Assembly: GCA_030583905.1 (NCBI GenBank) | Contig: CP129481.1 | Span: 2,260,136-2,324,135 of the forward strand | Direction: 5' to 3' | DNA length: 64,000 nt | DNA from: Anaerolineales bacterium | Lineage (GTDB): Bacteria > Chloroflexota > Anaerolineae > Anaerolineales > Villigracilaceae | Shown: positions 20,908 through 60,549 of the stretch, one piece after another | Numbering within the stretch: position 1 is the stretch's first letter | How the letters are laid out: each line of letters starts with the position of its first letter | The notes under the pieces: model-generated | What the model saw: only the letters and a program-made list of their open reading frames with translations | Databases searched by the model: none | What the model was told of the DNA's origin: nothing | Translations under genes and position numbers: made by a program

Positions 20908-22206
20908 ATGGATGTCTTGTTGCCTTTTGAGCGCTTAAGAAAATGGGGGATGAAGGGCGGGCTTGCAATTCTTGACCAGGGTGTGTTTTCCGGCGCGAAT
21001 TTTCTATTAACGATCCTGTTGGCTCGCTGGCTGGTTCCGGATCAATACGGTGCCTATGCCATCGGTTTTTCTGCGTTGGTTTTTTTCTTACAACTCCTTT
21101 TTTCCTTTGTTTTGGAACCGATGGCGGTCTTGGGACCATCCTCGCATGGAGAAGATCTGTCGGATTATCTTTCGGCACAGGTCCGCTTATATTTTATTTT
21201 TATCGGGGTATTGGGCTTGATCATTGCCGGTGCAGTATTTATTTATGGTCTTATTGGACAGAACTCCCTGCTCTCCAGCGTGTTGGTAGTATTGGGTCTG
21301 GTTCTTCCATTTCTTCTTTTTCCATGGCTGATGCGCAGGATCTTTTATGTACTTGGAAAACCGGAGATTTCACTGGCGGGCAGCATCGTATATTTGCTGA
21401 TCTTGCTTCTTCTTGTTATAAGCGCAAAATGGGTGGGAGTCCTTACAGGTGCATCCAGTGTGCTTATAGTCGCATCAGCGGGATTATTAAGCGGTTTATT
21501 TCTTGTATTGTTTTTTAGGCGGAATTATGGATACGGAAAGAAAATAACTGTCGGCAAATTGTTTCGTGAAAACTGGGTCTTTGGAAAGTGGTTGGTTCTT
21601 TCAGGAATTTTGATGATCGCCGCTGGACAGGTGCAAATTTACCTTGCAGGGACTATTTTAGGTCTGGAAGAAGCAGGTGTGATATACGCATTGCAGACCC
21701 TTTCCCAACCGATCACACTTAGCATCACCGCGGTGACTGCGGTGATCACTCCCAGTCTTGCCGCTGACTTCGCCAGAGGTGATATTGATTCCCTTAAGAA
21801 AAAGGTAAAGCTCATGACCATCACTTTGGCAGGGCTTGCGATGCTATTCGAATTATTCTTGTTTTTTTTCCGGGTGCCACTTGAGCAAATAGTGTTTGAT
21901 GGAATATTCTCAAACCATGTTGATTTGATCCCAATTTTGGGATTGTGTCCGCTGATTGCCTCGCTATTTTCCGGTATGCAATATGCCTTACAAGCTGCGA
22001 AGCGACCGGATGCGCTGCTTTTTGCATCCCTTATTTGGTTTCCGGTCAGTCTTGGGCTTGGATTGTTTTTTATTCGCTCTTGGGGATTATGGGGGGGGGC
22101 GTGGGCAACGGTTTTAGGCTATCTGGTGCTGGGTGTGACTTTAGCCCTTTTATATTGGCTCTGGCTTGTAAAACGTCCGAATCTTAAGTGGCCCGGGACA
22201 GTATGA
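20908..22206 (+). CDS. Polysaccharide flippase (Wzx/MATE-like)
   Basis: About 12 TM helices; ILDQGVFSGANF..ILLARWL.P.QYG; first gene of the EPS cluster. Confidence 0.8.
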   Translation: MDVLLPFERLRKWGMKGGLAILDQGVFSGANFLLTILLARWLVPDQYGAYAIGFSALVFFLQLLFSFVLEPMAVLGPSSHGEDLSDYLSAQVRLYFIFIGVLGLIIAGAVFIYGLIGQNSLLSSVLVVLGLVLPFLLFPWLMRRIFYVLGKPEISLAGSIVYLLILLLLVISAKWVGVLTGASSVLIVASAGLLSGLFLVLFFRRNYGYGKKITVGKLFRENWVFGKWLVLSGILMIAAGQVQIYLAGTILGLEEAGVIYALQTLSQPITLSITAVTAVITPSLAADFARGDIDSLKKKVKLMTITLAGLAMLFELFLFFFRVPLEQIVFDGIFSNHVDLIPILGLCPLIASLFSGMQYALQAAKRPDALLFASLIWFPVSLGLGLFFIRSWGLWGGAWATVLGYLVLGVTLALLYWLWLVKRPNLKWPGTV

Positions 22207-23414
22207 TGAGAGTTGTAGTTGCACATAATTTTTATCGTCAATCAGGCGGCGAGGACGCCGTATTTACATCTGAAAGCAGTTTATTGGAACAGTACGGACA
22301 TGAAGTGATACGTCATACGGTTTCCAATCAAGACGTAGATTTTCATTCGCGGCTTAAGTTGGCGGGGGCGACTTTATGGAATCATTCCGAATATAAGAAA
22401 ATAAAAAAGTTACTTCGCGAGAAGCGTCCGGATATTATTCATGTTCATAACACTCTCCCCTTGCTTTCTCCTTCGATCTATTATGCTGCTGGGGCGGAGG
22501 GGGTTCCGGTAGTTCAAATGTTGCACAATTACAGGCCGTTTTGTCTAAACGGCGTTTTATATCGTGATGGCCATCTTTGTGAAGATTGCATAGGGCGTAT
22601 TCCCCTTCCAGGCGTTTTGCACAAATGCTATCGGGGTTCGTACGCAGCCTCCGCCGGGGTGCTTTCTCTTAATGTTGCTTATTTTCGATTATTAAAGACA
22701 TATCAAAAGCATATATCGGTTTTTATCACCAGCACTCAATTTGCCAAGAATCTTTTTATTAAGATGGGATTGAAGGAAGACAATATAATAGTGAAGCCAA
22801 ATTTGGTGAAGGTGTTCGATTCTGTTGAAAAAATTCGCGTAGATTCCGAAGCAAGAAGCGGTGCCATATTTGTTGGCCGTTTGGACTCTCGTAAAGGGAT
22901 ATGGACGTTGCTCTCTGCAATTGAACGAACAAATATCCCCCTGACACTCGTGGGTGATGGGGATCTACGCATGGAAATTGAGGAATGGCTGCTGGAAAGG
23001 CCGAATCTAAAAGTTGAAATTACGGGCTGGCTGGATTCGGTTGAAGTTGCCGGTCGGATAAAAAGATCATCCGTGCTTGTCCTGCCATCCGAGTTCTATG
23101 AAAGTTTTGGCAATGTGATCGTTGAAGCTTTTTCGTGCGGGATTCCGGTTGTTACCACGAATATCGGAGCGCAATCGGAATTGGTCCAACATGGACGAAC
23201 CGGCTATTTGTATGCATATGGAGATGTTGATGCTCTGGCAAAGGCTCTGCAGACATTATTGGATAACCCAGAGTTGAGTTTGGTAATGGGAAAAAATGCA
23301 AGGCGTGAGTTTGAAATGAAATATACAGCCGAGCGAAACTATCGCGCTTTAATGGATATATATTCCGGTGTTATTGGTACGAAGTCAGTATTCCCTGACG
23401 GCAATATCGTTTAA
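22203..23414 (+). CDS. Glycosyltransferase family 4
   Basis: PDIIHVHN, LHNYR, FVGRL...KG, PSEFYESFG.VIVEAF..G.PVV. Confidence 0.92.
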   Translation: MMRVVVAHNFYRQSGGEDAVFTSESSLLEQYGHEVIRHTVSNQDVDFHSRLKLAGATLWNHSEYKKIKKLLREKRPDIIHVHNTLPLLSPSIYYAAGAEGVPVVQMLHNYRPFCLNGVLYRDGHLCEDCIGRIPLPGVLHKCYRGSYAASAGVLSLNVAYFRLLKTYQKHISVFITSTQFAKNLFIKMGLKEDNIIVKPNLVKVFDSVEKIRVDSEARSGAIFVGRLDSRKGIWTLLSAIERTNIPLTLVGDGDLRMEIEEWLLERPNLKVEITGWLDSVEVAGRIKRSSVLVLPSEFYESFGNVIVEAFSCGIPVVTTNIGAQSELVQHGRTGYLYAYGDVDALAKALQTLLDNPELSLVMGKNARREFEMKYTAERNYRALMDIYSGVIGTKSVFPDGNIV

Positions 23415-37023: not shown

Positions 37024-37153
37024 CAGGAGGGGGGTGGGAAGGCGGGACAGAGGGGCGCACACTGGCGCATGGGATGCGTTGCAGGATGGTGGAAATTCAT
37101 TAAAAGACGGGTTTTCACCGTATAATTGCGCCATCTAGATTATGAGGTGGGCT

Positions 37154-39910
37154 TTGCGCCGAATTAGTGAGGATACAACCCGCAAGGAAATGATCGACCC
37201 GCAGTTGGAAAGGGCGGGTTGGTATCTTGCTGACCATTCCAGGGTAAAGACCGAAATCCCTGTGGACGGCTACGATGCCGAGCCGTGGAATGGAATTTCG
37301 GATTACACGCTATACCGCGAAAATGGGGAAGTATTAGCGGTGGTCGAAGCCAAGAAGACATCGGTTGACGTCCGCCTGGCAGAAGCACAACTCACGCATT
37401 ATGTGACTGAAATTGAAAAACACCAGAGTTTCCGTCCGTTCGGCTTTTTAGCCAACGGACTGGAAATCCATTTTGTGGATGTAGGAGTTGCTCCCAAGCG
37501 GGAAGTGTTCGGATTCTTCACGCGCGAAGATTTGGAGAACCTGCTCTACATTCGTCAGAATGCGGTGCCGTTGAGTTCGGTTGAAATCAATAATCAAATT
37601 GTTGACCGTTCCTACCAGCACGAAGCCATCCGCCGCGTGGGCGAAGCCTTCGCCAATGGCAAGCGCAAAGCCCTGATCGTCATGGCGACAGGGACAGGCA
37701 AGACGCGTACCACAATGGGCTTGATAGATGTATTCATGCGGGCGGATCAGGCGAAGAAAATCTTATTCGTAGCGGACCGTGACGCACTCGTGGAACAAGC
37801 CATTGACGATGGTTTCCAAAAATATCTTCCAACGGAACCATGTACACGCTTGCACAGTTGGAAAGTGGAAACCAGCCAGCGCCTGTACGCGGTGACGTTG
37901 CAAACGCTGAGCAATATCTTCGAGCAGTTCTCGCCTGCCTTCTTTGACTTGATCGTCTTCGATGAAGTCCATCGCTCGATCTACAACAAATTCAACGAAG
38001 TGCTGGAGTATTTCGATGCCCGCCAGGTGGGATTGACCGCCACGCCCGCCAATTACATCAACCGCGACACCTTTCTTGCCTTCGATTGCACGGATGGCAA
38101 GCCGACCTATCTTTACACCTACGAACAAGCCATCGAAGACAAGTATCTCGTGGATTATGAACTCTACGCCGCGCGGACCAAGTTCCAGCGGCAGGGCATT
38201 CACGGCGTGGACTTAACCGAAGAGGAACGCAACGCCCTGATCGAAAAGGGACTTGACCCCGACGACATCAATTACGAAGGCACAGAACTGGAAAAGGAAG
38301 TCAGTAACCGCGATACGCTTCGTAAACAGTGGGAAGAGATTTGGGACGTGTGCCGAAAAGATTCGTCGGGACAATTGCCAGGCAAGACCATCGTCTTTGC
38401 GATGACACAAGACCACGCCTTGCGTTTGCAGGATGCGTTTTATGAGATGTATCCGCAATTCCCAGACTTGGCGAAGGTCATCACGCATAAATCGGAATAT
38501 CGCGGCACATTGGTGGAAGCGTTCAAGAAGAAGGATTTCCCGCGCATTGCTATTTCCGTGGACATGCTCGATACGGGCATTGATATTCCCGAAGCCGTCA
38601 ATCTGGTGTTCATGAAGCCTGTGCAATCGCCCATCAAGTTACAGCAGATGATCGGGCGCGGGACGCGCGTGCAGGCGGCGTGCAGAAATCTGGCGTTACT
38701 GCCGAACTTCGAGAAGAAGGATTTTCTCATCATTGACTTCTGGGAGAACAATTTCAGCAGGGATGCCAAGGAAGTCGTTGACCAATCTACGCCTGTGCTG
38801 GTGACGATCTTCAACACACGTTTGAAATTGTTGGAGACCTATCTCAAAGACCAGAAAGACCCCGATTGTAAGCAAGTGATCGCTGACCTGCGCGAGCAGA
38901 TTCAGGGCATCCCAACCGACTCGTTTACCATCCGCAAGCATATGCCAGAGATCGAAGAAGCATGGACAGATGCCTTCTGGGACTATCTCATCCCCAGCAA
39001 GATCGAATTCTTGAAATTGAAAGTCGCCCCGCACCTGCGACTCGTCCCTGGCGTGGACGTTGCTGCGGCGACCTTCATCAGCAAAGTGGAACGGTTGAAA
39101 CTACTCAAACGCACAGGCAGGGAAACCAGTGGAACGATTCAATCCATCGTAGAAGATGCCCAGAGTTTGCGCGATACGATTTTGTCTGACGCGGAAATCA
39201 AAGCCAAGAGCATGTGCGTTCCTGAAAAATTGGTGGAGTTCTCGAACAACGAATTGGACCTGCTTCGAGATGTGCTTTCACCGTGTATGAAGAACAAAAT
39301 ACGGTATGACTCTTTCCTGGAACTCGATCTACTGGATTCCATTGCGGTCAGCGGCTACATTTTGCTCACCAAGAGCGGAGAGAAAATGTACGTGGCGGAA
39401 TATCGCCGTTTGGTGGAAGAGCGCATTTTGCAATTGGTGGCGAACCACCCCACAATAAAGGCAATTCAAAACAGTTATGGTAGGGGCGAAGCATTGCTTC
39501 GCCCTTACATCGACGACTGGCAACTGCTCGAACTCGAACGCACACTGACCAAAGAACTCGGCGAAGGCGACCTGGAAGTGACGCCAGAAAACTTGAAGAA
39601 GGTTTTCGCTCACACCGCCGATAGTTTTCTCGGCTTGGTGCGCCAGGTGCTGGACATGCAGTACCTGCCCGATTACAAGGATTTGGTGGCGCGGCAGTTT
39701 GAAACCTATGTGACCCAACACAACTACAACGCTGACCAGATTCGCTTCTTGCGCGCGGTGCAAAGCGTGTTCTTGCAAAAGCGCCACCTCGAAACTGCCG
39801 ACCTATACGAGCCGCCGTTGGATATGTTTGGCGCGGACGCGGTGGAGCGGTGGTTTACGGAGAAGGAAGTGGAAGAAGTGGTTGAGTTTGCAAATAAGAT
39901 GGCGGTATAG
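37154..39910 (+). CDS. hsdR: Type I restriction endonuclease subunit R (EcoAI/EcoEI-like)
   Basis: Nuclease DY.L...AVVEAKK, MATGTGKT, DEVHRS, GLTATP, VDMLDTG.D, QMIGRGTR, EcoEI_R_C-like tail; TTG start after gaggtg (the track starts at 37142). Confidence 0.93.
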   Translation: MRRISEDTTRKEMIDPQLERAGWYLADHSRVKTEIPVDGYDAEPWNGISDYTLYRENGEVLAVVEAKKTSVDVRLAEAQLTHYVTEIEKHQSFRPFGFLANGLEIHFVDVGVAPKREVFGFFTREDLENLLYIRQNAVPLSSVEINNQIVDRSYQHEAIRRVGEAFANGKRKALIVMATGTGKTRTTMGLIDVFMRADQAKKILFVADRDALVEQAIDDGFQKYLPTEPCTRLHSWKVETSQRLYAVTLQTLSNIFEQFSPAFFDLIVFDEVHRSIYNKFNEVLEYFDARQVGLTATPANYINRDTFLAFDCTDGKPTYLYTYEQAIEDKYLVDYELYAARTKFQRQGIHGVDLTEEERNALIEKGLDPDDINYEGTELEKEVSNRDTLRKQWEEIWDVCRKDSSGQLPGKTIVFAMTQDHALRLQDAFYEMYPQFPDLAKVITHKSEYRGTLVEAFKKKDFPRIAISVDMLDTGIDIPEAVNLVFMKPVQSPIKLQQMIGRGTRVQAACRNLALLPNFEKKDFLIIDFWENNFSRDAKEVVDQSTPVLVTIFNTRLKLLETYLKDQKDPDCKQVIADLREQIQGIPTDSFTIRKHMPEIEEAWTDAFWDYLIPSKIEFLKLKVAPHLRLVPGVDVAAATFISKVERLKLLKRTGRETSGTIQSIVEDAQSLRDTILSDAEIKAKSMCVPEKLVEFSNNELDLLRDVLSPCMKNKIRYDSFLELDLLDSIAVSGYILLTKSGEKMYVAEYRRLVEERILQLVANHPTIKAIQNSYGRGEALLRPYIDDWQLLELERTLTKELGEGDLEVTPENLKKVFAHTADSFLGLVRQVLDMQYLPDYKDLVARQFETYVTQHNYNADQIRFLRAVQSVFLQKRHLETADLYEPPLDMFGADAVERWFTEKEVEEVVEFANKMAV

Positions 39911-39916
39911 ATTGCG

Positions 39917-42871
39917 ATGAAGAAAAAAGCCTTGCCCCTAACCCTTGTTCTCATTGGCGCAGCGTTATTGATAACGACTGTGGTCTTTTGGATTGATTCG
40001 AGCACAACCACCGAGCCGCAGAGTTTCGGGAAAACTTTACTCGACTGGGTAACACTCATTGCTGGGCTTGGGGCAAGTATCAAAGGTTGGATGGATTTAT
40101 TTAAGCCTGATAAACCAAAACCACCGACCACGAAAATTGAAGTGAAAGGCGAAAGATCGCAAGTTTCTACTGGCGATAATTCCCCAAATATTCAAACTGA
40201 GACTTACATCGGCACTCAGATTGTTCAACAACCATCAGAGCCAAAAACGCCAAGGTCTCTAAACCAATTACCTTCGCCACCTTTGGATTTTATTGGACGG
40301 GAAAAAGAATTAGCCCAACTTCGCCAGAACATTGAAAAAGGAGTGGTAATTTCAGGTGTTCAAGGTATGGGCGGAATTGGCAAAACTGCACTTGGTTTGA
40401 AACTCGCTGAACAAATTTCACCCAATTATCCAGATGGGCAAATATATCTTGACTTGCGCGGCGCGCATGAGCAGACACCACTTACACCTGAACAAGTTAT
40501 GGCGCACCTGATTCGGAGTTTTCACCCTGAAACCGCTTTACCGCTTGATTTTGGGGAATTAGGCGCAATGTATCGATCTGTGCTAAGCGGTAAGAAAGCA
40601 TTGCTTTTTTACGATAATGCACGTGACGAAAAACAGTTGGATTCATTGTTGCCCCCCAGAGGGTGTACTTTATTTGTCACTTCACGTCAGTACTTTACCT
40701 TGCCTGGACTTGTGGCAATTGACCTGGAGACTCTAGACTCCAAAGACGCAGTTGAATTGGTACAAGAAATATCGTCAAGAGTTAATAATAAAGACGCTGA
40801 AACGCTTGCGAAACTATGCGGTTACCTGCCGCTGGCGATTCGCGCGGCTGTGAGCGTTTTGCCCAGAAGACCCGATTGGTCTCCCACCGAATTGATAAAA
40901 CGGCTGAGTGATAGCAGGGCAAGATTGGGGCTGGTTGAAAGTTCGCTGAGTTTAAGTTACGACGCCCTTGATTCCGAATTACAAAAATATCTGCGCCAAC
41001 TTGGAGTGTTTGCTGCACCCTTTGACAAAGCAGCAATTCTGGCGGTGTGGTTTGATGAAAGAGATTTGCGCTTGCGACAATTAGGGTTGACATTAAGCTC
41101 ATCATCAGGCACAGATGATGAAATTGTCAATAAAAAATCGCCCGAACGGGAAGCAGATGATATTCTCGGTGAGTTATTAAAGACCAGCCTGTTGAAATAC
41201 GATCAAAACACAAATGAATATTATTTTCATGACCTGACACATATATTTCTTGAGGAAAAGGTTCGGCAAGACGAAAATTCTGATGATGTTTTATGGCGAT
41301 ATGCACAGCACTATTTGAAACTTGCAAGCCAGGCTGATGACGATTATCGAAAAGGCGAAGGACAATATCTTGTTGCTATTGCCCGTTTTCGACAATTGTG
41401 GTTACATGTCAATAAAATATCTGAAAGATTATCAATCGAATCAAATTGGAAAAAGCCAATTTCGGCTGAACGATGGTTGGAAAGATCTGCTTACACAGTT
41501 AGTGAAATGCTCACTATTGGCTTAACGCCAAATAACTATATCTCTTATGTCCAACGGAGTCTTAACGCTTCAAGACGAAACAAAAACCAAGAAGTAGAAA
41601 GTTACAATTTGAATAAACTGGGTCTCGCCTACTCCGCCTTGGGGGATGCGCGCAAAGCGATTGAGTACTACGAGCAGGCGCTTGCCATTGCCCGCGACAT
41701 CGGCGATAGAAAGAGCGAAGGCGGTATTCTTGGCAACGTGGGTCTCGCCTACTCCGCCTTGGGGGATGCGCGCAAAGCGATTGAGTACTACGAGCAGGCG
41801 CTTGCCATTGCCCGCGACATCGGCGATAGAAAAACGGAAGGAATGTTTCTTGGCAACGTGGGTCTCGCCTACTCCGCCTTGGGGGATGCGCGCAAAGCGA
41901 TTGAGTACTACGAGCAGGCGCTTGCCATTGCCCGCGACATCGGCGATAGAAAGAGCGAAGGCGGTATTCTTGGCAACGTGGGTGGAGCCTACTCCGCCTT
42001 GGGGGATGCGCGCAAAGCGATTGAGTACTACGAGCAGGCGCTTGCCATTGCCCGCGACATCGGCGATAGAAAAACGGAAGGAATGTTTCTTGGCAACGTG
42101 GGTCTCGCCTACTCCGCCTTGGGGGATGCGCGCAAAGCGATTGAGTACTACGAGCAGGCGCTTGCCATTGCCCGCGACATCGGCGATAGAAAAACGGAAG
42201 GAATGTTTCTTGGCAACGTGGGTGGAGCCTACTCCGCCTTGGGGGATGCGCGCAAAGCGATTGAGTACTACGAGCAGGCGCTTGCCATTGCCCGCGACAT
42301 CGGCGATAGAAAGAGCGAAGGCGGTATTCTTGGCAACGTGGGTGGAGCCTACTCCGCCTTGGGGGATGCGCGCAAAGCGATTGAGTACTACGAGCAGGCG
42401 CTTGCCATTGCCCGCGACATCGGCGATAGACGAAGTGAGAGTTTTTTTGTCAGTAATTTAGGGGCAATAAATCGAACACTTGGTAATCTTGATATTGCTT
42501 TGGATTTTCTAAAACAAGGTCTGGAGATTTCAAAAGAGGTTGGTGATAGGCACGGGGAAGGTGCAGATTGGGATAATCTTGCCAACGTTTATGCTGATAA
42601 GCAGGATTATGAGAATGCGCTCATTGCCTACAAAAATGCTATGGACATCTCTAGAGAAGTTGGCGATCCATCTCTGGAAGCCAATATCGCCTGGAACGTT
42701 GCTACAATTTACTATGAAAAAGAACAGTATGAAATGGCATGTAAATATATGCAAATCACGGTTGACTTTGAGAATAAGATAAATCATCCAAATGCAAATA
42801 CAGACTTGGAAGCCTTGAATAAGGTACGCGCTAAAATTCAGAATATAACCAAGCCCGAGGAACTGAATTAA
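39917..42871 (+). CDS. NB-ARC/STAND NTPase with N-terminal hydrophobic helices and C-terminal TPR array (NLR-like)
   Basis: FIGREKEL, GMGGIGKT, LLFYDNA, LFVTSR, CGYLPLAI, SL.LSY..L, MHD-like FHDL; 40-aa TPR repeats. Confidence 0.9.
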   Translation: MKKKALPLTLVLIGAALLITTVVFWIDSSTTTEPQSFGKTLLDWVTLIAGLGASIKGWMDLFKPDKPKPPTTKIEVKGERSQVSTGDNSPNIQTETYIGTQIVQQPSEPKTPRSLNQLPSPPLDFIGREKELAQLRQNIEKGVVISGVQGMGGIGKTALGLKLAEQISPNYPDGQIYLDLRGAHEQTPLTPEQVMAHLIRSFHPETALPLDFGELGAMYRSVLSGKKALLFYDNARDEKQLDSLLPPRGCTLFVTSRQYFTLPGLVAIDLETLDSKDAVELVQEISSRVNNKDAETLAKLCGYLPLAIRAAVSVLPRRPDWSPTELIKRLSDSRARLGLVESSLSLSYDALDSELQKYLRQLGVFAAPFDKAAILAVWFDERDLRLRQLGLTLSSSSGTDDEIVNKKSPEREADDILGELLKTSLLKYDQNTNEYYFHDLTHIFLEEKVRQDENSDDVLWRYAQHYLKLASQADDDYRKGEGQYLVAIARFRQLWLHVNKISERLSIESNWKKPISAERWLERSAYTVSEMLTIGLTPNNYISYVQRSLNASRRNKNQEVESYNLNKLGLAYSALGDARKAIEYYEQALAIARDIGDRKSEGGILGNVGLAYSALGDARKAIEYYEQALAIARDIGDRKTEGMFLGNVGLAYSALGDARKAIEYYEQALAIARDIGDRKSEGGILGNVGGAYSALGDARKAIEYYEQALAIARDIGDRKTEGMFLGNVGLAYSALGDARKAIEYYEQALAIARDIGDRKTEGMFLGNVGGAYSALGDARKAIEYYEQALAIARDIGDRKSEGGILGNVGGAYSALGDARKAIEYYEQALAIARDIGDRRSESFFVSNLGAINRTLGNLDIALDFLKQGLEISKEVGDRHGEGADWDNLANVYADKQDYENALIAYKNAMDISREVGDPSLEANIAWNVATIYYEKEQYEMACKYMQITVDFENKINHPNANTDLEALNKVRAKIQNITKPEELN
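41621..42430 (+). repeat. 120-bp tandem repeat x7 encoding TPRs
   Basis: Lines at 41641, 41761, 41881, 42001, 42121, 42241 and 42361 are identical; variation is confined to two sites. Confidence 0.97.
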
Positions 42872-44670
42872 TGCTCACCGACCCTAAACTCCGCAGCCAA
42901 GTAGACGCCCTCTGGGATAAGTTCTGGACGGGTGGATTGACGAACCCGCTCGATGCGATCGAGCAGTTTTCGTATTTGTTGTTCCTCAAGCGGTTGGATG
43001 ACCGCGAGAACGCGGCGGAAAGACAGGCAAAACGCAAGGGGACGACGTATCAGCCCAACGTTAAGAAAGAGATGCGTTGGAGCGTCTGGAAGCAGATGAA
43101 GGCGGAAGAGATGCTCAAGCATCTTAAGTCGGTCGTCTTCCCGCAGTTGGCGAGTCTCACTGATGAAGCATCATCATTTGGTATCTACATGCGCGGGGCG
43201 GAGTGCAAGATCAATAAGCCGAGTCTGCTGGTGGAGGCGGTGAACCTGATCGACCAGATGGAGATCAGCCAGCAAAATCAGGATGTGCAGGGCGACCTGT
43301 TCGAGTACCTGCTGAGTCATTTGAGCATCGCCGGGCGCAATGGACAGTTCCGCACGCCGCGTCACATCATCCGCATGATGGTGCAGATGCTCGACCCCAA
43401 GCCGCGTGAACGCATCGGCGACCTGGCGGCGGGCACGGGCGGATTTTTGATCAACGCGCACCAGTATATTTTGGAGAAGGCGACGTCGAAGAACATCCTT
43501 GAATTCGATGCGGACGGCAGCGCACATCATCTGATCGGCGACCTGCTGAAGGATGACGAGCGCAAGTTCATGAATAGCAAAAAATATCTGCGCGGCTTCG
43601 ACAACGACTCAGGCATGACCATGCTGCGCATCGGCTCGATGAACCTGATGTTGCACGGCATTCAGGAGCCGCAGTTCTTTTACATGGACACGCTCTCCAA
43701 GGGCTATGGGGAGGTGGGCGAGTACGATGTCATTTTGATGAACCCGCCCTTCAAAGGCGCGGTGGACAAAGGCGACGTGCATCCCGACCTGCCCAGCGAT
43801 ACGACCAAGAGCGAGTTGCTCTTTTTGCATTTGATTTTGCGCGCGCTCGATATGGGCGGACGCGCGGCGGTGATCGTGCCCGATGGCGTGCTGTTCGGGT
43901 CGAGCCGCGCCCATGTGGAACTGCGCAAACGCCTCATCGAAGAGAATCGGCTGGACGGCGTGGTCTCGATGCCTTCGGGCGTCTTCAAGCCCTACGCGGG
44001 CGTCAGCACGGCGGTGCTGTTCTTCACGCGCGGCGCACAGACGAAAAACATTTGGTTCTATGACATGGCGCACGATGGTTTTTCGCTGGATGATAAGCGG
44101 ACAAAAGTGGATGAGAACGACATCCCCGATATTTTGGATTGTTGGAAGAAGCGGGGGGATAAGAAGTTCATAGAGAGTAGAGAACAGAGAATCGTGGAGT
44201 TGCGGAAGGAGTTGACTCCGTTGAAGGAAAAGAGATTGAAGTTGCAAGCGGAAGTCAACCGCCTCACGTTCGAACTGGCAATTGCCCCTGTTTCTGACGG
44301 CTCTTCTGCCCCGCAACCTGTCACCGCAGAGACGCGGAGCGACGCAGAGAAAACCAAAGAAAAACTCGGCGCTCTCGGCGTCTCCGCGGTCAATGCTCTT
44401 GCTGATGCGCAAGAACAACTCTCTACTCTCCAATCTCTACTCTCTTCTCCGCAAGGGGAACTCGACCGCCTGACCCGCCAATTCTGGGTGACCAAGGAGC
44501 AGGTCAAGGCGAACAAGTACGATCTCTCTGCCAGCCGTTACCGCCAAGTGGAAGCGGACGCGGCGTATCACGAACAGCCGTCTGTGACGCTGGAACGTTT
44601 GGCGCGGTTGGAGAGTGTGATGTTGGATGAAATTGCGGAATTGAAGAAAACGATGAAGGCTGAAGGATGA
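42871..44670 (+). CDS. hsdM: Type I R-M methyltransferase subunit M
   Basis: GQFRTPRHII, DLAAGTGGF (motif I), NPPF (motif IV), VPDGVLF, FKPYAGVST, YDLS..RY. Confidence 0.95.
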   Translation: MLTDPKLRSQVDALWDKFWTGGLTNPLDAIEQFSYLLFLKRLDDRENAAERQAKRKGTTYQPNVKKEMRWSVWKQMKAEEMLKHLKSVVFPQLASLTDEASSFGIYMRGAECKINKPSLLVEAVNLIDQMEISQQNQDVQGDLFEYLLSHLSIAGRNGQFRTPRHIIRMMVQMLDPKPRERIGDLAAGTGGFLINAHQYILEKATSKNILEFDADGSAHHLIGDLLKDDERKFMNSKKYLRGFDNDSGMTMLRIGSMNLMLHGIQEPQFFYMDTLSKGYGEVGEYDVILMNPPFKGAVDKGDVHPDLPSDTTKSELLFLHLILRALDMGGRAAVIVPDGVLFGSSRAHVELRKRLIEENRLDGVVSMPSGVFKPYAGVSTAVLFFTRGAQTKNIWFYDMAHDGFSLDDKRTKVDENDIPDILDCWKKRGDKKFIESREQRIVELRKELTPLKEKRLKLQAEVNRLTFELAIAPVSDGSSAPQPVTAETRSDAEKTKEKLGALGVSAVNALADAQEQLSTLQSLLSSPQGELDRLTRQFWVTKEQVKANKYDLSASRYRQVEADAAYHEQPSVTLERLARLESVMLDEIAELKKTMKAEG

Positions 44671-45857
44671 ATATGAATCAGCCATTCGTTGAGTTGCAAG
44701 AAGTTTGTCGGTTTATCAGCGGCGGAACGCCAAGCACAAAAGTTCCTGAATATTTCATGGGAACGATTCCTTGGATTACTGGCGCAGATATGAACGGCAA
44801 CGTGATAACTAAAGCGCGACAATACATTACCGAAGAAGCAATTCAGAACTCGGCAACAAATATTGTTCCAAAAGGAAATATCTTGCTTGTCACTCGCACT
44901 GGTGTTGGCAAAGTTGCCATTGCTGGTGTTGATATTTGCATAAGCCAAGATTTTACGGGATTGGAACTCGACAAAACAAAAGTAGATGAATGGTTCTTGC
45001 TCTATTATTTGCGCTCTCAAGAAGAAGCCCTTACTTCTCAACAGCGTGGTGCGACCATTCAAGGAATTACAAGAGATGTAGTTGAAACTCTAAAACTTCC
45101 CCTGCCCCCGCTGACCGAGCAAAAGCGGATTGCGTCCCTACTGGCGCGGGCTGACCGTCTCCGCTCCCTGCGGCGGACAGCGCACGATCTCGGCGAGTCC
45201 CTGCTCCAGTCCGTGTTTTTGGAGATGTTTGGGGATGAACAAAAGCAAAACTATGTAACGATTCAAGAGTTGATGGACTCAGAAGTCATTATTGATATGC
45301 AAGACGGAAATCATGGTGGTGACTATCCAAGAACATCAGAATTTGTTTCTGAAGGCATACCATTTCTAACTGCAACTAATGTAATTGGCAACCGAGTTTT
45401 TCTTGACGCTGCTCCTAGATTGAAACCAGAAAGAGCGCATAAATTACGAATTGGTTGGGTAAAGCCAAATGATGTTTTGCTGTCTCATAACGCTACAGTT
45501 GGACGTGTTGCTATCATGCCATACTTTGAAGGCGAAGTTGTACTTGGCACATCATTAACTTATTACAGATTAAATCCTGAAATTCTTTTACCCCGATATT
45601 TTTCTGGTCTTTTGCAGTCAAGGCATTTTCAATCCCAACTTGAAAGTTTTATGGGGCAAACAACGCGCAATCAAGTTCCAATAACTCGCCAAAGGGAATT
45701 GTTTGTTCCTGTTCCGCCACCGCTGAATCTGCAAGAAGAGTTTGCGGGCATGGTGGCGCGGGTCGAGTCGCTGCGGGGGAGGATGTCCGAGGCGGGGAGG
45801 CAGGTCGAGGGGTTGTTTGAGAGTCTGTTGGCGAAGAGCTTCGGAGGAGGAAGGTAA
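44667..45857 (+). CDS. hsdS: Type I R-M specificity subunit S
   Basis: TRD1 (GGTPST..PEYF.G.IPWI), central PLPPLTEQKRI, TRD2, terminal PPPLNLQEEF...LFESLL. Confidence 0.93.
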   Translation: MNMNQPFVELQEVCRFISGGTPSTKVPEYFMGTIPWITGADMNGNVITKARQYITEEAIQNSATNIVPKGNILLVTRTGVGKVAIAGVDICISQDFTGLELDKTKVDEWFLLYYLRSQEEALTSQQRGATIQGITRDVVETLKLPLPPLTEQKRIASLLARADRLRSLRRTAHDLGESLLQSVFLEMFGDEQKQNYVTIQELMDSEVIIDMQDGNHGGDYPRTSEFVSEGIPFLTATNVIGNRVFLDAAPRLKPERAHKLRIGWVKPNDVLLSHNATVGRVAIMPYFEGEVVLGTSLTYYRLNPEILLPRYFSGLLQSRHFQSQLESFMGQTTRNQVPITRQRELFVPVPPPLNLQEEFAGMVARVESLRGRMSEAGRQVEGLFESLLAKSFGGGR

Positions 45858-45860
45858 AGA

Positions 45861-46976
45861 ATGCCATTCGAAACTGCTCGTGTCGCGTTGTTAGGTGAGT
45901 TAGCTGTCGTAATCTCTGGATATTCGCCAAAACCAAGCGAAAGACAAAGGGTTGGAAAATATCTATTACTAGGTGGACGAAATATTGGTGATAGAAGGAT
46001 ATCTTTAACTGTCAAAGATTCTTATATTGAAGATGTAGATAAAGTCAGTTTTCGAAGCGCTATAGCCCGAGCAGGTGATATTATCGTTTCAACACTTTTT
46101 AAAGATCGAAAAATTTATTTTTTCAGAGAAAGTGACCTACCATCTGTAGTCAATAATAGCTGCAAAATAATTAGAGCAACAGCGAACAATGATTATATTC
46201 TGTCATATTTGAGAACTGAGAAAGGACAAAAACAATTTCTTTCGGATGCAGATAATACTGCTAAGGGAGCCTTGATTCCATTCATATCCACAAAAGATAT
46301 TCTAAATATTGAAATACCAATCTTGCCTTTTGAAGAACTACAGCATTTGGGTGATAGCTACATTCAAAATGCTACTTTAGATGATTTGGTTGTAATTCGT
46401 GATGAACTCAAGAGCAAAGAGAAAGAAGTGGCAGTACTTCAAAGTAGACTGACTGATATAACGACTTATTACGAAGACAGATTAAAGAAAGTAGAAACGC
46501 GAATAACAAATTTAGAGTCTATTCCAATAGTTGAGAGACCATTAAAAGTGTTTTTATGCCATTCAAGTTCAGATAAGCCTTATGTTAGGAATCTATATGA
46601 AAATTTAACCGAATTACCAAATGTTGATCCTTGGTTGGATGAAAAAAAACTCTTACCAGGTGATGATTGGCAATTGGAAATCGAAAATGCAGTAAGAACA
46701 TCTGACGTTGTTCTTGTGTGTCTATCCAAAATGTCAACAACCAAAGAGGGATTTGTTCAAAAAGAAATAAAATACGCTTTGGATGTTGCTGAAGAAAAAC
46801 CACCAGGCACCATCTTCATTGTCCCCTTGAAAATAGAAGAATGCTTAGTTCCCAAACGACTTAACCAATTTCAATGGCTTGATTATTTTGCTGATGATGC
46901 AAATGAAAAGCTACTCAAATCTCTTGAAAAACGTGCTCGAACATTGGGAATTGAGTTTAGATATGAAAGCAGATAA
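45861..46976 (+). CDS. HsdS-like TRD fused via a coiled coil to a C-terminal TIR domain
   Basis: N-terminal LGEL..ISG..P...RNI...GDIIVS...DYILSYL...GALIPFIS.KDI.NIEIP..P; C-terminal KVFLCHSSSDK..V..LY..L...DPWLD..KLLPG.DW..EI..AVR.SDVV.VCLS......GFVQKEI. Confidence 0.85.
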   Translation: MPFETARVALLGELAVVISGYSPKPSERQRVGKYLLLGGRNIGDRRISLTVKDSYIEDVDKVSFRSAIARAGDIIVSTLFKDRKIYFFRESDLPSVVNNSCKIIRATANNDYILSYLRTEKGQKQFLSDADNTAKGALIPFISTKDILNIEIPILPFEELQHLGDSYIQNATLDDLVVIRDELKSKEKEVAVLQSRLTDITTYYEDRLKKVETRITNLESIPIVERPLKVFLCHSSSDKPYVRNLYENLTELPNVDPWLDEKKLLPGDDWQLEIENAVRTSDVVLVCLSKMSTTKEGFVQKEIKYALDVAEEKPPGTIFIVPLKIEECLVPKRLNQFQWLDYFADDANEKLLKSLEKRARTLGIEFRYESR

Positions 46977-51429: not shown

Positions 51430-53043
51430 ATGAATGGCAAAATTAGCTTCATTCCAAATGCAGATTTGGGCAGATATCTTCAATCCCTTGACTCTGTGCG
51501 ATTCCTTGAATCAAATGAGATTGCTTGTAATGTCCAAGCAAAATTAGAAATTTTTACGTCTTTGATGTTAGGTAGAACTATCCCTGTCGGTGAGCACCAG
51601 TTCATTGATTCGTACGGGCTTCTGTCGAATGCGTATCACATGATTAAAGCCTTAGATAAGTTGCCAAAAACAGATCGCTCCCAAATTGAACATATATTTC
51701 CTTTTCAACTTTATTTCCGAGGCGAATATAAGACCATAGATGGTTTGATTGCCGCAAAACTGGGCGACCCTAATTACAAACTTTCTTTGTGGCGTTATTT
51801 AAGCAAACCTGATGACCAAAAAATGCTAGATAATCGCCAAAAGATAAAGGCAAAAGTGGAAGATGGTACTTTTAAGTACGAGGATGACGATCTCGTGCCA
51901 AACAAAGATTATGATGCAGCAAAAATGCTTCACAAAGTTCGAAATCACTTCTTTCACGGCGAAAGAGAGCAAATCTACACACTCTACGGTTCTAAGACAA
52001 TTGGGATTGCACCTTACATTGGGCTTCTTGAAGCAGGAATTTCGAGGATTAGTAATCTGACTAGAAAGGATTTGAACAGTCAGATTAAACATCAAGCAAA
52101 GCTAATGGATAAGGGAATAATTGCCACAGAGATACTCGATCCTAAGTTAAAAGAAATAGCCGTTGAACTAATCATGATTCTGAGGCAACTAAAGAAACTT
52201 GGATTGATGACGGGAAATCGCTCTAATATCCGAATCGGTAATGCGAGAATTAGGTCACGGGGGAAAGAAAAAATTCAAAAGTTCAGAGAGATTGTAAACA
52301 ATGATCTAATGTATGACGCCATACTTGAAATTTTTGATTTGCTTTACAATAGTTCAATTGCTAAATCGTGTTTTGCACATAGCGAAAGTGTTTCATCAGC
52401 TCGGAGTATTACTGATAATCATTATGTCCAAGCGGCAATAGCACTTTCTACAATGGCAAAAAACGAGATTACCGATCAGGCAGACTTGAAAGGGAATTAC
52501 TTTAACCCGCCCTGGATACAAGATTTTACGTTCAACCTAAACGTGCCTTCCGAGGCAAAACTTATGCTTGATTCTATGCCATGGGAGCGTGTTTGGGAGG
52601 CGTTTTTGGATACAAAATGGCGAGATACTGTTTCTAATTTAAACGGTATTCTCTTGAAATGGGACAAATTTATCAATGACCCAACTACATCTGAACAAGA
52701 ATATATGGATGTGACCTACGAGTTGGATTATGCTTACGATGCACATATAGACAATATAAGCAGGATTCTTAAAGAGTCAGGGTGGAATTTTGTTAAAAAC
52801 CAGAAAACCAACCAAACCATAATTAAGTTTTTACCTTGGGTAGGTGGGTTAGCTACTAAGGCAGTAGCAAAGATTGCTCTTGATCGCGTTGGCATAGATC
52901 CATTTTGGGAGGAAACAATACCAGATTCAATTGGTACCGCAACGGGAATTGGCATAAATAAAACTATCGAACCTGTTGGCAAATGGATAACTAAAGGTTA
53001 CATTAGAAAGACATTTGCCCGCTTGGTTTTGCCAGAAAAATAA
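51430..53043 (+). CDS. Hypothetical 537-aa protein
   Basis: Long AT-rich ORF with RBS aaggag; no family recognised. Confidence 0.85.
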   Translation: MNGKISFIPNADLGRYLQSLDSVRFLESNEIACNVQAKLEIFTSLMLGRTIPVGEHQFIDSYGLLSNAYHMIKALDKLPKTDRSQIEHIFPFQLYFRGEYKTIDGLIAAKLGDPNYKLSLWRYLSKPDDQKMLDNRQKIKAKVEDGTFKYEDDDLVPNKDYDAAKMLHKVRNHFFHGEREQIYTLYGSKTIGIAPYIGLLEAGISRISNLTRKDLNSQIKHQAKLMDKGIIATEILDPKLKEIAVELIMILRQLKKLGLMTGNRSNIRIGNARIRSRGKEKIQKFREIVNNDLMYDAILEIFDLLYNSSIAKSCFAHSESVSSARSITDNHYVQAAIALSTMAKNEITDQADLKGNYFNPPWIQDFTFNLNVPSEAKLMLDSMPWERVWEAFLDTKWRDTVSNLNGILLKWDKFINDPTTSEQEYMDVTYELDYAYDAHIDNISRILKESGWNFVKNQKTNQTIIKFLPWVGGLATKAVAKIALDRVGIDPFWEETIPDSIGTATGIGINKTIEPVGKWITKGYIRKTFARLVLPEK

Positions 53044-58736: not shown

Positions 58737-59366
58737 CTATTTAATTTGAATGACCTTCTTTTTTACTGCCTCGGTTACCGCTGATGTGCGATCAGTTACT
58801 CCCAATTTGGAAAAGATATGGACGAAATGAGATTTAACAGTTGCCTCGGTAATGAACAATATCTTTGCTATTACCTTATTAGAATTGCCTTGCGATGCAA
58901 GCTCCAACACTTCAATTTCACGGCTGCTCAATATATTTTTAGAAGAATTTGTCAAACGCCGCGTTACTCTTTCTGCCACACGCGGCGCTAGCGACATCTC
59001 GCCCCTTGCTGCATTGCGAATCGCTTGAAATAGTTGTTCAGGGGGAGTGTCTTTTAGTAAATAACCAATTGCTCCAGCTTCGAGTGCCGGCAATATATCT
59101 GCATCTGTTTCATAAGTAGTAAGTACTAAAATATTTGCCTTTGGCAACTTGTCTCGAATAAGTTTTATCGCCCCCAGTCCGTCTAAATTGGGCATTTGCA
59201 GGTCCATGAGAATTAAATCTGGGACGAGAGAGATTGCCAGCTTGGCAGCCTCTTCGCCGTTTTCGGCATCAGCGACTATATCAAAATCCGGTTGTGATGA
59301 TAATAAAGCTCGCAACCCACTGCGGACAACAGGGTGGTCATCAGTAATTATTATGTTAATCGTCAT
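58737..59366 (-). CDS. NarL/LuxR family response regulator
   Basis: IITDDHPVVR.G, LMDLQMP..DG, GYLLK, LS.RE.EVL...GNSNK.IA..LFITEATVKSH. Confidence 0.95.
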   Translation of the reverse strand: MTINIIITDDHPVVRSGLRALLSSQPDFDIVADAENGEEAAKLAISLVPDLILMDLQMPNLDGLGAIKLIRDKLPKANILVLTTYETDADILPALEAGAIGYLLKDTPPEQLFQAIRNAARGEMSLAPRVAERVTRRLTNSSKNILSSREIEVLELASQGNSNKVIAKILFITEATVKSHFVHIFSKLGVTDRTSAVTEAVKKKVIQIK

Positions 59367-60549
59367 TTTCTTCTGAAACAGGAATAGAAACAGCAATTGC
59401 TGTTCCTGTTCCTCGCTCACTTTCTATGTTTAGTGTTCCATTCAATTCTTCTGCTCTGTCTCGCATTGTTCTCATTCCGAAACCATTCTTGATTTTTGAA
59501 GGGTCAAACCCCAGTCCATCATCGGCAATATCCATCACAAAAATATCTTCCATAAACGAAAAGGTGATATTGACGTTTTTAGCTTGAGCATGTTTATTTA
59601 TATTCTGCATGGCTTCCTGTGAAATGCGGAGTAGTGCCGTTTCGGTAGATGATGTGAGAGAGCGCGGATTACCCGTCACTTTCATCTTTACCTGTATATT
59701 ATTTTCTGCAGACCAACGTGCCGCTAATTCTTCAACAGCCTCGATAAGAGAAGCGCTTTCAAATTGTTCCGGTTGCATGTCCCAAACGATCCTGCGAATC
59801 TCGTCAAGCCCTTCCCGTGCAGCATCTTCGGCTTGTTGAACTTCTGATTGGACTGCTCCCGGGTTGCTGTGCTTTGCCGCAGAGAGATGCATGATAATGG
59901 ACGTGAAATGTTGGGCAAGCGTGTCGTGAATGTCACGGGCGATGCGTTGTCGTTCAGTCAGCCGACCCGCTTCCCGTTCAATCCTCATCAAATCTGCCCG
60001 GGACCGGGTTAATTCATCAATAAGACGTTGGCGTTTTGTACTCTGTATTAAGATGGATGAAATAAAAGCACCAATGATCGTCGAGATGATCAGCATACCT
60101 AGGATGATCAATAGGATTGCGAACCAATGCTCAGTTGGATATAACATGATATATAGAACATAAAGACCTAAAGTCTGAAAAACAGTTATTCCAATTGACC
60201 ACCGAATGGGGAATCGGCTAAAAATTAATGGAAAGAATATCCCTATCAACAAAAGCGAATCGGCGGCGAGTGAGAGCAAACCACCCCAGATTACCCATCC
60301 TGGTACCAGATAAAGTGCGCCGCGTTTAGGATTATCCCAAATGCGCAAATTTGAAATGGTTATAAATGGGATGTACCATACACCCAATGCCGCAGAAAGA
60401 ATAAGAAAGAACGAAAAGTTTATGATTTTAGGTTCACGGTTGTATACAAATATGATGTTCAAGATAAGAAAACTGTAGGCTGAAAAGTGCCATACCCAAT
60501 CCCATTGTTCCCATACCTCGGGGGGTTTGCTTTTTTGTATTTTCGTCAT
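59356..60549 (-). CDS. Membrane sensor histidine kinase (HisKA_3, DesK-like)
   Basis: N-terminal TMs, ERQRIARDIHDTLAQ, QEAMQNI.KHA, DDGLGFD, GFGM..M. Confidence 0.93.
   Translation of the reverse strand: MTKIQKSKPPEVWEQWDWVWHFSAYSFLILNIIFVYNREPKIINFSFFLILSAALGVWYIPFITISNLRIWDNPKRGALYLVPGWVIWGGLLSLAADSLLLIGIFFPLIFSRFPIRWSIGITVFQTLGLYVLYIMLYPTEHWFAILLIILGMLIISTIIGAFISSILIQSTKRQRLIDELTRSRADLMRIEREAGRLTERQRIARDIHDTLAQHFTSIIMHLSAAKHSNPGAVQSEVQQAEDAAREGLDEIRRIVWDMQPEQFESASLIEAVEELAARWSAENNIQVKMKVTGNPRSLTSSTETALLRISQEAMQNINKHAQAKNVNITFSFMEDIFVMDIADDGLGFDPSKIKNGFGMRTMRDRAEELNGTLNIESERGTGTAIAVSIPVSEENDD

Follow-up and report, generated by a model that had tools for sequence, protein, structure and literature searches.

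Can a bacterial NLR-like receptor vary its sensor by reshuffling nearly identical repeats, as is known from fungi? This question is raised by a gene on a 64,000-nucleotide stretch of the genome of an Anaerolineales bacterium (Chloroflexota; GenBank assembly GCA_030583905.1, contig CP129481.1, positions 2,260,136 to 2,324,135 of the forward strand). The whole stretch is called the window here, and all coordinates refer to it unless another locus is named. The gene lies in a Type I restriction-modification (R-M) operon and encodes a protein of the STAND type, whose tetratricopeptide repeats (TPRs) include seven units with base-identical cores. An earlier note, made from the letters of the window alone, had proposed that ongoing unequal crossover or gene conversion reshuffles the specificity of this sensor. 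Recombinational reshuffling of the array is indeed observed in natural populations. The explanation which we consider best, and somewhat better than an even bet, is that the TPR sensor array is homogenised by unequal crossover and gene conversion, which re-sort cassettes of the binding groove, and that it is exchanged between lineages. Ligand specificity would presumably be altered by such reshuffling.

Anatomy of the repeat array

The array units were taken as 120 bp (40 residues) and numbered in register from 41621. Tandem Repeats Finder (TRF) reports a single strong tandem array in the window, located at 41619-42430 with a period of 120 and 6.8 copies. Together with the unit alignment this confirms to the base the seven TPR units with identical cores which the earlier note had placed at 41621-42430. 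The features on which the argument relies are the following:

39917-42871, + strand: gene of the NLR-like STAND protein, 984 aa, with a presumed membrane hairpin, a short motif, an NB-ARC nucleotide-binding oligomerisation domain (NOD) and a sensor of 40-residue TPRs
41621-42430, + strand: homogenised TPR array, seven 120-bp units with base-identical cores (TRF, unit alignment, unitig depths of metagenome run X4)
41621, 41741, 41861, 41981, 42101, 42221 and 42341, + strand: unit starts (unit alignment)
41624-41626, + strand: variable site A, TPR helix-A position 9, CTC (Leu) or GGA (Gly), recurring every 120 bp at 41744, 41864, 41984, 42104, 42224 and 42344
41711-41728 (18 nt), + strand: variable patch B, codons for TPR positions 38, 39, 40, 1, 2 and 3, recurring every 120 bp at 41831, 41951, 42071, 42191 and 42311
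42431-42868, + strand: degenerate, AT-rich C-terminal TPRs and cap without homogenisation (GC content 0.385)

Units 1-6 are full length and 91-100% identical as DNA; unit 7 is the same over its first 90 nt and then decays into RRSESFF. The 90-nt cores of all seven units are identical, and a 75-nt core string occurs seven times in the window with 0 mismatches, an occurrence for which shuffled sequences give an expectation of 0. Variation among units 1-6 is restricted to two patches, nt 4-6 and nt 93-106 of the unit. At site A (nt 4-6) the codons CTC and GGA differ in three of three bases, and the states along the array read L L L G L G G. Patch B exists as AAGAGCGAAGGCGGTATT, encoding KSEGGI (S), or as AAAACGGAAGGAATGTTT, encoding KTEGMF (T), and reads S T S T T S. 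Here, eight of the 14 bases at nt 93-106 are changed, two of them synonymously (in the K and G codons). The six junctions run S-L, T-L, S-G, T-L, T-G, S-G, exactly as claimed before, and all four allele combinations are present both across the 15-nt linker and, within units, across the 86-nt core. Since haplotypes of three and eight bases cannot arise twice by mutation, recombination or patchy conversion has acted in both intervals.

The changes among units (G>A, G>C, C>G, C>A, G>T, T>G, A>T and CTC>GGA) occur in discrete haplotypes. The window contains no template-like second copy of the unit, and no inverted repeats were found flanking the array. An assignment of the array to a diversity-generating retroelement (DGR), a CRISPR-like element or an RNA element was rejected, as the changes are not adenine-specific and there are no spacers, no second copy and no Rfam match.

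Composition and polymorphism of the array in sludge populations

Seven sludge metagenomes (runs X1-X7) were available as k=31 unitig sets, from which multiplicities can be read, and unit order cannot. In run X4, an independent metagenome, the flanks of the array have a depth of 45.8-49 and the core has a depth of 347.4. The SEGGI, TEGMF and GGA alleles reach 149.5, 141.8 and 145.3, and the junctions S>L, T>L, S>G and T>G reach 49.2, 100, 100 and 50, respectively. Per flank copy, this corresponds to seven cores, to alleles at a ratio of 3:3:3 and to junctions at a ratio of 1:2:2:1, which equals the array of the window. These integer multiplicities thus provide clear evidence that the composition of the array is genuine and not the short-read misassembly which the earlier note had itself considered.

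The comparison of read depths suggested by the note also reveals copy-number polymorphism, as the seven runs differ in copy number and in their junction sets. Samples with 100% identical flanks differ in unitig graph, copy number and junction set. Run X6 contains only four unitigs (flank, core-TEGMF-CTC-core, CTC+core, flank), and its array is made of L/TEGMF units only, roughly three in number. In runs X1, X2 and X3 the SEGGI unitig is joined straight to GGA, so that the SEGGI>L junction is missing, and the core is 3.7-7 times as deep as the flanks. Runs X5 and X7 show non-integer or different junction ratios, which suggests that they are mixtures. A co-occurring strain of the P0002 type, a relative described below, was rejected as the cause of a raised core depth, because P0002 flanks and the NSEGKF allele are absent from X1, X3, X4 and X6.

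Assembled relatives give the same picture. The near-isogenic P0003 and P0004 loci are distinguished, over 5.7 kb, by six single-nucleotide polymorphisms and a single indel, which removes or adds exactly 240 bp (two units) of the array. The resulting forms of one and three units were both recovered in two to three separate assemblies. In the one-unit form, the L-start is joined to the terminal patch, as unequal crossover within the core predicts. Altogether, close relatives and samples have between 1 and 7 copies of the unit. The array is thus variable across strains, and the mechanism proposed earlier, unequal crossover or gene conversion, is borne out by the exact indel, by differing unitig graphs between identical flanks and by the lineage-fixed cores described in the next section.

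In runs X1 and X3 the 'core-end+AA' and 'L-start' unitigs exceed the summed known junctions by about 0.5-1 genome copy, which was seen with unitigs placed on 41640-41900 of the window and on L006:1900-2900. This excess depth hints at a further patch allele or at heterogeneity; relaxed mapping at 80% identity yielded no candidate for a further patch allele in the two runs.

Similar arrays are also found among public metagenome gene calls, where P0122, P0123, P0125, P0126 and P0129 are short fragments of near-identical TPR arrays. Many such gene calls slip into the +1 repeat frame (e.g. '...RPSSTTSRLWPS...'), and this frame is also open across the window array at 41646-42461. The corresponding frame-2 open reading frame of the window (41646-42461, 271 aa) was rejected as a gene; it follows automatically from a stop-free repeated unit. 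It appears that assemblies routinely truncate near-identical TPR arrays or shift their frame. Since many metagenome assemblies collapse, break or frameshift such arrays, their variation is systematically under-reported.

Evolution of the array across lineages

Relatives of the NLR-like protein are annotated as Chloroflexi/Anaerolineales metagenome-assembled genomes, and DNA of the locus is present in sludge metagenomes. A comparison of orthologues, as recommended in the earlier note, shows that arrays vary, with lineage-specific core substitutions and shared patch alleles. In the P0004 lineage five core substitutions are fixed in every unit and are absent from all window and P0002 units. The same lineage carries both patch strings of the window, one synonymous base apart. 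Lineage-fixed core substitutions in combination with shared patch alleles point to concerted evolution.

The core of P0002 is base-identical to the core of the window, while the flanking coding DNA is only 74-84% identical. At four-fold degenerate sites compared between lineages, 13 of 14 and 15 of 15 core sites are identical, compared to 45% and 57% of the flanking sites (P ~2e-4). The ancestor of the array is thus far more recent than that of the surrounding gene. Such a young array may either have been exchanged between lineages or be subject to nucleotide-level constraint. Its youth relative to the flanks suggests exchange between lineages, a conclusion which goes beyond the reading of the earlier note.

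Relatives contribute further alleles of both variable sites, namely the patches NSEGKF (P0002) and KTEGIF (L011) and, in the P0004 lineage, Ala (GCA) at position 9. The two-site binary code described earlier is thus valid within the window, while the sites are multi-allelic when relatives are included. A similar adjustment applies to base composition. The array (GC 0.59; GC content at third codon positions, GC3, 0.68) is a GC-rich block compared to the remainder of its own gene (GC 0.43 and 0.385; GC3 0.37 and 0.35), as had been noted. Ordinary genes of the window show GC3 values of 0.6-0.8, and the array falls within this range. Hence, the array looks host-like, and it is the surrounding, AT-rich NLR gene that looks foreign. 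Where orthologues lack a homogenised array, the repeats in its place are AT-rich. Possible origins of the GC-rich core are GC-biased conversion and import from a GC-rich paralogue. An exact scan for the 51-nt core in GTDB species genomes and JGI metagenomes gave orthologous loci only and no array donor. Likewise, a search with the array protein returned no donor, only short, often frameshifted fragments of other arrays with 50-79% identity, which shows that arrays of this type are common.

Position of the variable residues

TPR numbering was anchored on V7-G8-x9-A10-Y11...A20...Y24...A27. The variable residues occupy TPR positions 38/39, 2, 3 and 9, all within one continuous helix A (for example residues 598-614, with a predicted local distance difference test value, pLDDT, of >90 in the AlphaFold2 model). 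On a helical wheel, positions 39, 2, 3 and 9 are at most 60 degrees away, to either side, from the conserved Asn6. The eukaryotic LGN/Pins proteins match the TPR region (phmmer E ~1e-54) in a gapless alignment over 183 residues with ~34% identity, and Foldseek yields target-normalised TM-scores of 0.75-0.87 against LGN-peptide complexes. In this alignment the counterpart of position 9 is the Asn in the Leu-Gly-Asn triplet of LGN, and that of position 2 is an Arg of LGN. The inner groove of the LGN superhelix binds extended peptides via helix-A Asn and Arg residues, and the triplet Asn residues form hydrogen bonds with the peptide main chain within this groove (PMC3438535).

The earlier statement that helix-A positions 2 and 9 belong to the groove agrees with the literature, in which positions 2, 5, 9, 12, 13, 33 and 34 are listed as concave-face, generally variable TPR positions (PMC1261162). 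It also agrees with the hypervariability of these positions across the family, since similar repeats of one protein differ most at positions 2, 9, 13, 3 and 12 (507 repeats from 102 homologues). In three dimensions, the variable residues are predicted to be exposed in the groove.

Competing explanations

The main alternative, to which we assign a minor but appreciable probability, regards the pattern as a neutral by-product. A recent amplification would have been homogenised by conversion, with the mismatch-dense patches (3/3 and 8/14 bases) aborting heteroduplex extension; the patches would happen to occupy the least constrained surface positions, and receptor specificity would not be selected. 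In line with this, multi-nucleotide patch clusters that include synonymous differences fit old haplotypes and not new mutations, and an array that is young and common to lineages requires no long-term balancing selection to explain allele sharing. Moreover, variability in TPRs is in general greatest at positions 2, 3 and 9 (PMC1261162; family mismatch profile). However, the four combinations across the 15-nt and 86-nt intervals imply that conversion does separate and re-sort the patches. The amino-acid differences between units are furthermore all on one face of helix A, and they are radical, position 2 being G, M, K or I and position 9 being L, G or A by codon changes of two to three bases. 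The 30 core codons, on the other hand, are without any change, the same positions vary within proteins across the whole family, and three of the five core substitutions that separate lineages change the amino acid.

According to a second alternative, which we regard as improbable, the array serves as a length ruler or scaffold. Repeat number, and thereby solenoid length or avidity, would matter, and residue differences would be incidental. The range of copy numbers from 1 to 7 is compatible with such a role, but it leaves the confinement to groove-type positions and the conservation of alleles across lineages unexplained. In addition, samples with similar core multiplicity differ in allele content.

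That the repeat was collapsed or mis-ordered by the assembler or during polishing is very improbable. Short reads cannot order 120-bp units with 90-nt identical cores, several public contigs end within the array (P0005, L011), and the unit order of the window goes back to its original assembly. On the other side, the window protein is carried on a 4.13-Mb contig, the X4 unitigs return every allele and junction multiplicity as an integer, and independent assemblies of relatives have the same architecture. Least likely of all is programmed diversification by a dedicated enzyme, either a DGR or a Y1 (HUH) transposase: a 192-aa Y1_Tnp gene directly follows the gene with the array in the P0002, P0003 and P0004 loci and DGRs diversify STAND-type sensors in multicellular bacteria (PMC10907252), but the differences are discrete shared haplotypes and not adenine-specific scatter, the window is without Y1_Tnp, the NLR stop overlapping the hsdM start, and a Pfam scan found no reverse transcriptase among the five cluster genes at 37142-46976 (the rest of the window was not checked).

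In the explanation that we favor, unequal crossover and gene conversion between misaligned units would keep the 90-nt core and the 15-nt linker identical. At the same time, recombination would alter unit number and re-sort the few helix-A cassettes at positions 38/39, 2, 3 and 9, and arrays or units would additionally be exchanged between related lineages. Each arrangement would create a different inner-groove surface for an extended peptide or protein ligand, so that receptor variants would coexist in a population as a repertoire. If LGN and antiviral STAND proteins (PMC13581612) are taken as a guide, an extended segment of a foreign protein may be bound in the groove. Ligand binding would then lead to NB-ARC oligomerisation and, via a membrane-directed N-terminal effector, to abortive infection.

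Several points weigh against this explanation. Groove exposure is argued from DSSP, helical geometry and LGN homology, and about four patch alleles and three to four position-9 alleles are too few for a test based on the ratio of non-synonymous to synonymous substitution rates (dN/dS). Dense mismatches in the patches could block conversion, so that alleles could persist without selection. Unit order in the window depends on the original assembly. Regarding the proposed defence role, the orthologues P0006 and P0008 are located outside R-M operons, and PADLOC gives only generic 'TPR repeats containing protein' models for the NLR-like protein and no validated antiphage STAND family.

A further-reaching version, put forward only tentatively as the odds appear to be against it, is that the groove is built from a small library of helix-A cassettes, re-dealt within the array and passed between co-occurring lineages, in a receptor coupled to Type I R-M. 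If this were true, an environmental population would hold a combinatorial receptor repertoire, which as a concept is nearer to the assembly of receptors from cassettes than to allelic variation of the usual kind. The receptor could, for example, provide a second layer beside Type I R-M that senses phage proteins or anti-restriction peptides. The locus displays the full signature in a bacterial NLR from natural-population data alone, i.e. polymorphism of repeat number and order between identical flanks, concerted evolution of the scaffold, reassortment of cassettes at groove-type positions and probable exchange between lineages. With seven units and two variable sites, it represents a compact, testable system for the question whether bacterial NLR sensors tune their specificity by repeat shuffling, and it is also relevant to defence genes nested within R-M operons.

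Comparison with known systems

The likeness to fungal NLR repeats drawn in the earlier note holds up well. TPR, ANK and WD repeats of fungal NLRs are highly conserved internally, polymorphic and variable on the concave face (PMC4986451). The bacterial locus resembles them in its NB-ARC-TPR architecture, in near-identical tandem repeats with strain-level repeat-number polymorphism, in concerted evolution, and in having few variable positions, located on helix A and the predicted concave face. Unlike the fungal repeats, the locus is bacterial, its units comprise 40 residues compared to mostly 42 in fungi, and it uses few discrete multi-nucleotide cassettes common to lineages where fungi show many point variants. 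Moreover, the array is younger than its gene and compositionally distinct, repeat-induced point mutation (RIP) is not involved, and the gene is operonic in Type I R-M with a presumed membrane hairpin at its N-terminus.

Bacterial TPR-like repeats that are linked to NTPases and show high internal identity (42PR) were reportedly described by Marold et al. in 2015; in contrast to those, the units here are 40 residues long and 90-100% identical, which also exceeds the within-protein identity of about 85% that was taken to define diversifying repeats of the fungal type. TPR-type repeats of bacterial NLRs have been found to be 80-90% or more mutually identical, with the suggestion that they 'might similarly' diversify as in fungi (10.1101/2020.01.06.895854). 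Going beyond this suggestion, copy-number and order polymorphism, shared cassettes and fixation of cores within lineages are seen directly here.

Antiviral STAND NTPases (Avs, bNACHT; PMC13581612, 10.1101/2022.07.19.500537) share the layout of effector, STAND NTPase and TPR-like sensor and the location among defence genes; by analogy, ligand-triggered oligomerisation would be expected here as well. However, those Avs sensors that have been characterised show no repeats in their sequence and identify conserved folds of phage proteins by shape, whereas the present sensor contains a homogenised variable array. The TPR domain of LGN/GPSM2/Pins (PDB 3sf4, 3ro2, 4a1s, 4wnd, 6hc2) has the same 40-residue period, but these proteins are eukaryotic, their repeats are not homogenised and they are not STAND proteins; they serve only as a structural and mechanistic template for positions 2 and 9. 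Conflict sensors diversified by DGRs (PMC10907252; PMC7159879) are likewise bacterial STAND-type systems which diversify sensor or effector surfaces. They employ reverse-transcriptase, adenine-directed mutagenesis of a C-type lectin/FGS fold, whereas pre-existing TPR cassettes are recombined here. In conclusion, the locus is an unusually clean bacterial case of a phenomenon known in fungi and anticipated in bacteria. Its particular traits are the discrete shared cassettes, the young, host-like array in an AT-rich gene and the nesting in a Type I R-M operon.

Architecture of the NLR-like protein

Upstream of the sensor, the following parts are recognised:

39929-40102, + strand: N-terminal hydrophobic helices, aa 5-62 (modelled helices 5-30, 38-49 and 55-62)
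40157-40219, + strand: conserved motif SQVSTGDNSPNIQTETYIGTQ, aa 81-101, in a disordered linker (low pLDDT; sequence recurrence)
40289-41266, + strand: NB-ARC nucleotide-binding oligomerisation module and winged helix, aa ~125-450

The protein matches the Pfam families NB-ARC (PF00931) and TPR_12 (E=9e-103). Over aa 136-320, PF00931 scores 28.2 bits at a cut-off of 23.5, and the full-length protein scores 26.1 bits. Four motifs, the Walker A motif (GxxGxGKT) GMGGIGKT (150-157), the Walker B motif (hhhhD) LLFYDNA (~229-235), the sensor TSR (255-257) and the GxP motif GYLP (302-305), are invariant or nearly so in 40 homologues, and a weak Pfam match to an APAF-1-like winged-helix domain (WHD) is found at aa 412-445. 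The AlphaFold2 model of the 984-aa protein has a mean pLDDT of 82. With this model, Foldseek retrieves the STAND-TPR structure 6mfv (E=4e-17), Apaf-1 (1z6t/3sfz; E ~1e-9 to 5e-10) and Avs3 (8dgc; E=1e-8). The sensor consists of about eleven TPRs of 40 residues, modelled as alternating helices of 17-18 residues with pLDDT >90. According to sequence and model, the array is predicted to be the sensor of an NB-ARC-TPR STAND protein, i.e. a "bacterial NLR". The N-terminal hydrophobic helices, for which a Pfam scan of aa 5-62 gave no match, are presumed to form a membrane-inserting effector or anchor.

Between the membrane hairpin and the NB-ARC module (40157-40219) lies a motif of about 21 residues, SQ[IV][SA]TGDxxxNIQx[EQ]xYI[EG]. 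The same motif forms the extreme N-terminus of a related NLR, P0019 (L017:7001-9172), and is also found within a TIR-domain protein encoded directly upstream of P0019 (L017:5826-6977). A motif common to an NLR N-terminus and an adjacent effector would be the genomic signature of amyloid-type (BASS-like) NLR signalling motifs.

Operon context and neighboring genes

The NLR-like gene is surrounded by the following genes:

37142-39910, + strand: hsdR, Type I restriction subunit (Pfam ResIII, HSDR_N, EcoEI_R_C; PADLOC REase_I, E=3e-116)
42871-44670, + strand: hsdM, Type I methyltransferase (Pfam N6_Mtase, HsdM_N)
44667-45857, + strand: hsdS, specificity subunit (Pfam Methylase_S, two stretches)
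45861-46976, + strand: fusion of an HsdS-like target-recognition domain and TIR, last gene of the cluster (Pfam TIR_2, aa 230-349)

Only 6 nt separate the end of hsdR from the start codon of the NLR gene, and the ATG of hsdM overlaps the NLR stop codon in the window. The P0003/P0004 lineage and P0009 (65% protein identity) likewise have hsdR-NLR-hsdM in this order. In the loci L001, L004, L005 and L016 we observed hsdR-NLR-hsdM(-hsdS) with tight or overlapping junctions. Conserved gene order and tight or overlapping junctions suggest that the NLR is co-transcribed, and perhaps functionally coupled, with the Type I R-M complex. There is a precedent for defence genes that lie within Type I R-M operons (10.1101/2024.04.04.588119), and the presumed defence role of the NLR-like gene is deduced from this operon context. 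P0006 and P0008, the orthologues outside R-M operons, adjoin an integrase or HEPN_AbiU2 gene.

In relatives, a 192-aa Y1 (HUH) transposase gene is located between the NLR gene and hsdM (L001:10621-11199, L004:9018-9596, L006:3118-3696); the window has no Y1 transposase at this position. PADLOC Specificity_I models match aa 5-200 of the TIR fusion gene at 45861-46976, in addition to TIR models, and its product could act as a TIR effector guided by DNA sequence or as a specificity subunit that serves as a decoy. This gene is strongly AT-rich (GC 0.35, GC3 0.24). Compared to a GC content of 0.58-0.63 in ordinary window genes, the stretches 20908-23414, 44667-46976, 51430-53043 and 59356-60549 contain genes with a GC content of 0.35-0.46, which indicates multiple patches of foreign or defence-island-like DNA in the window besides the NLR gene.

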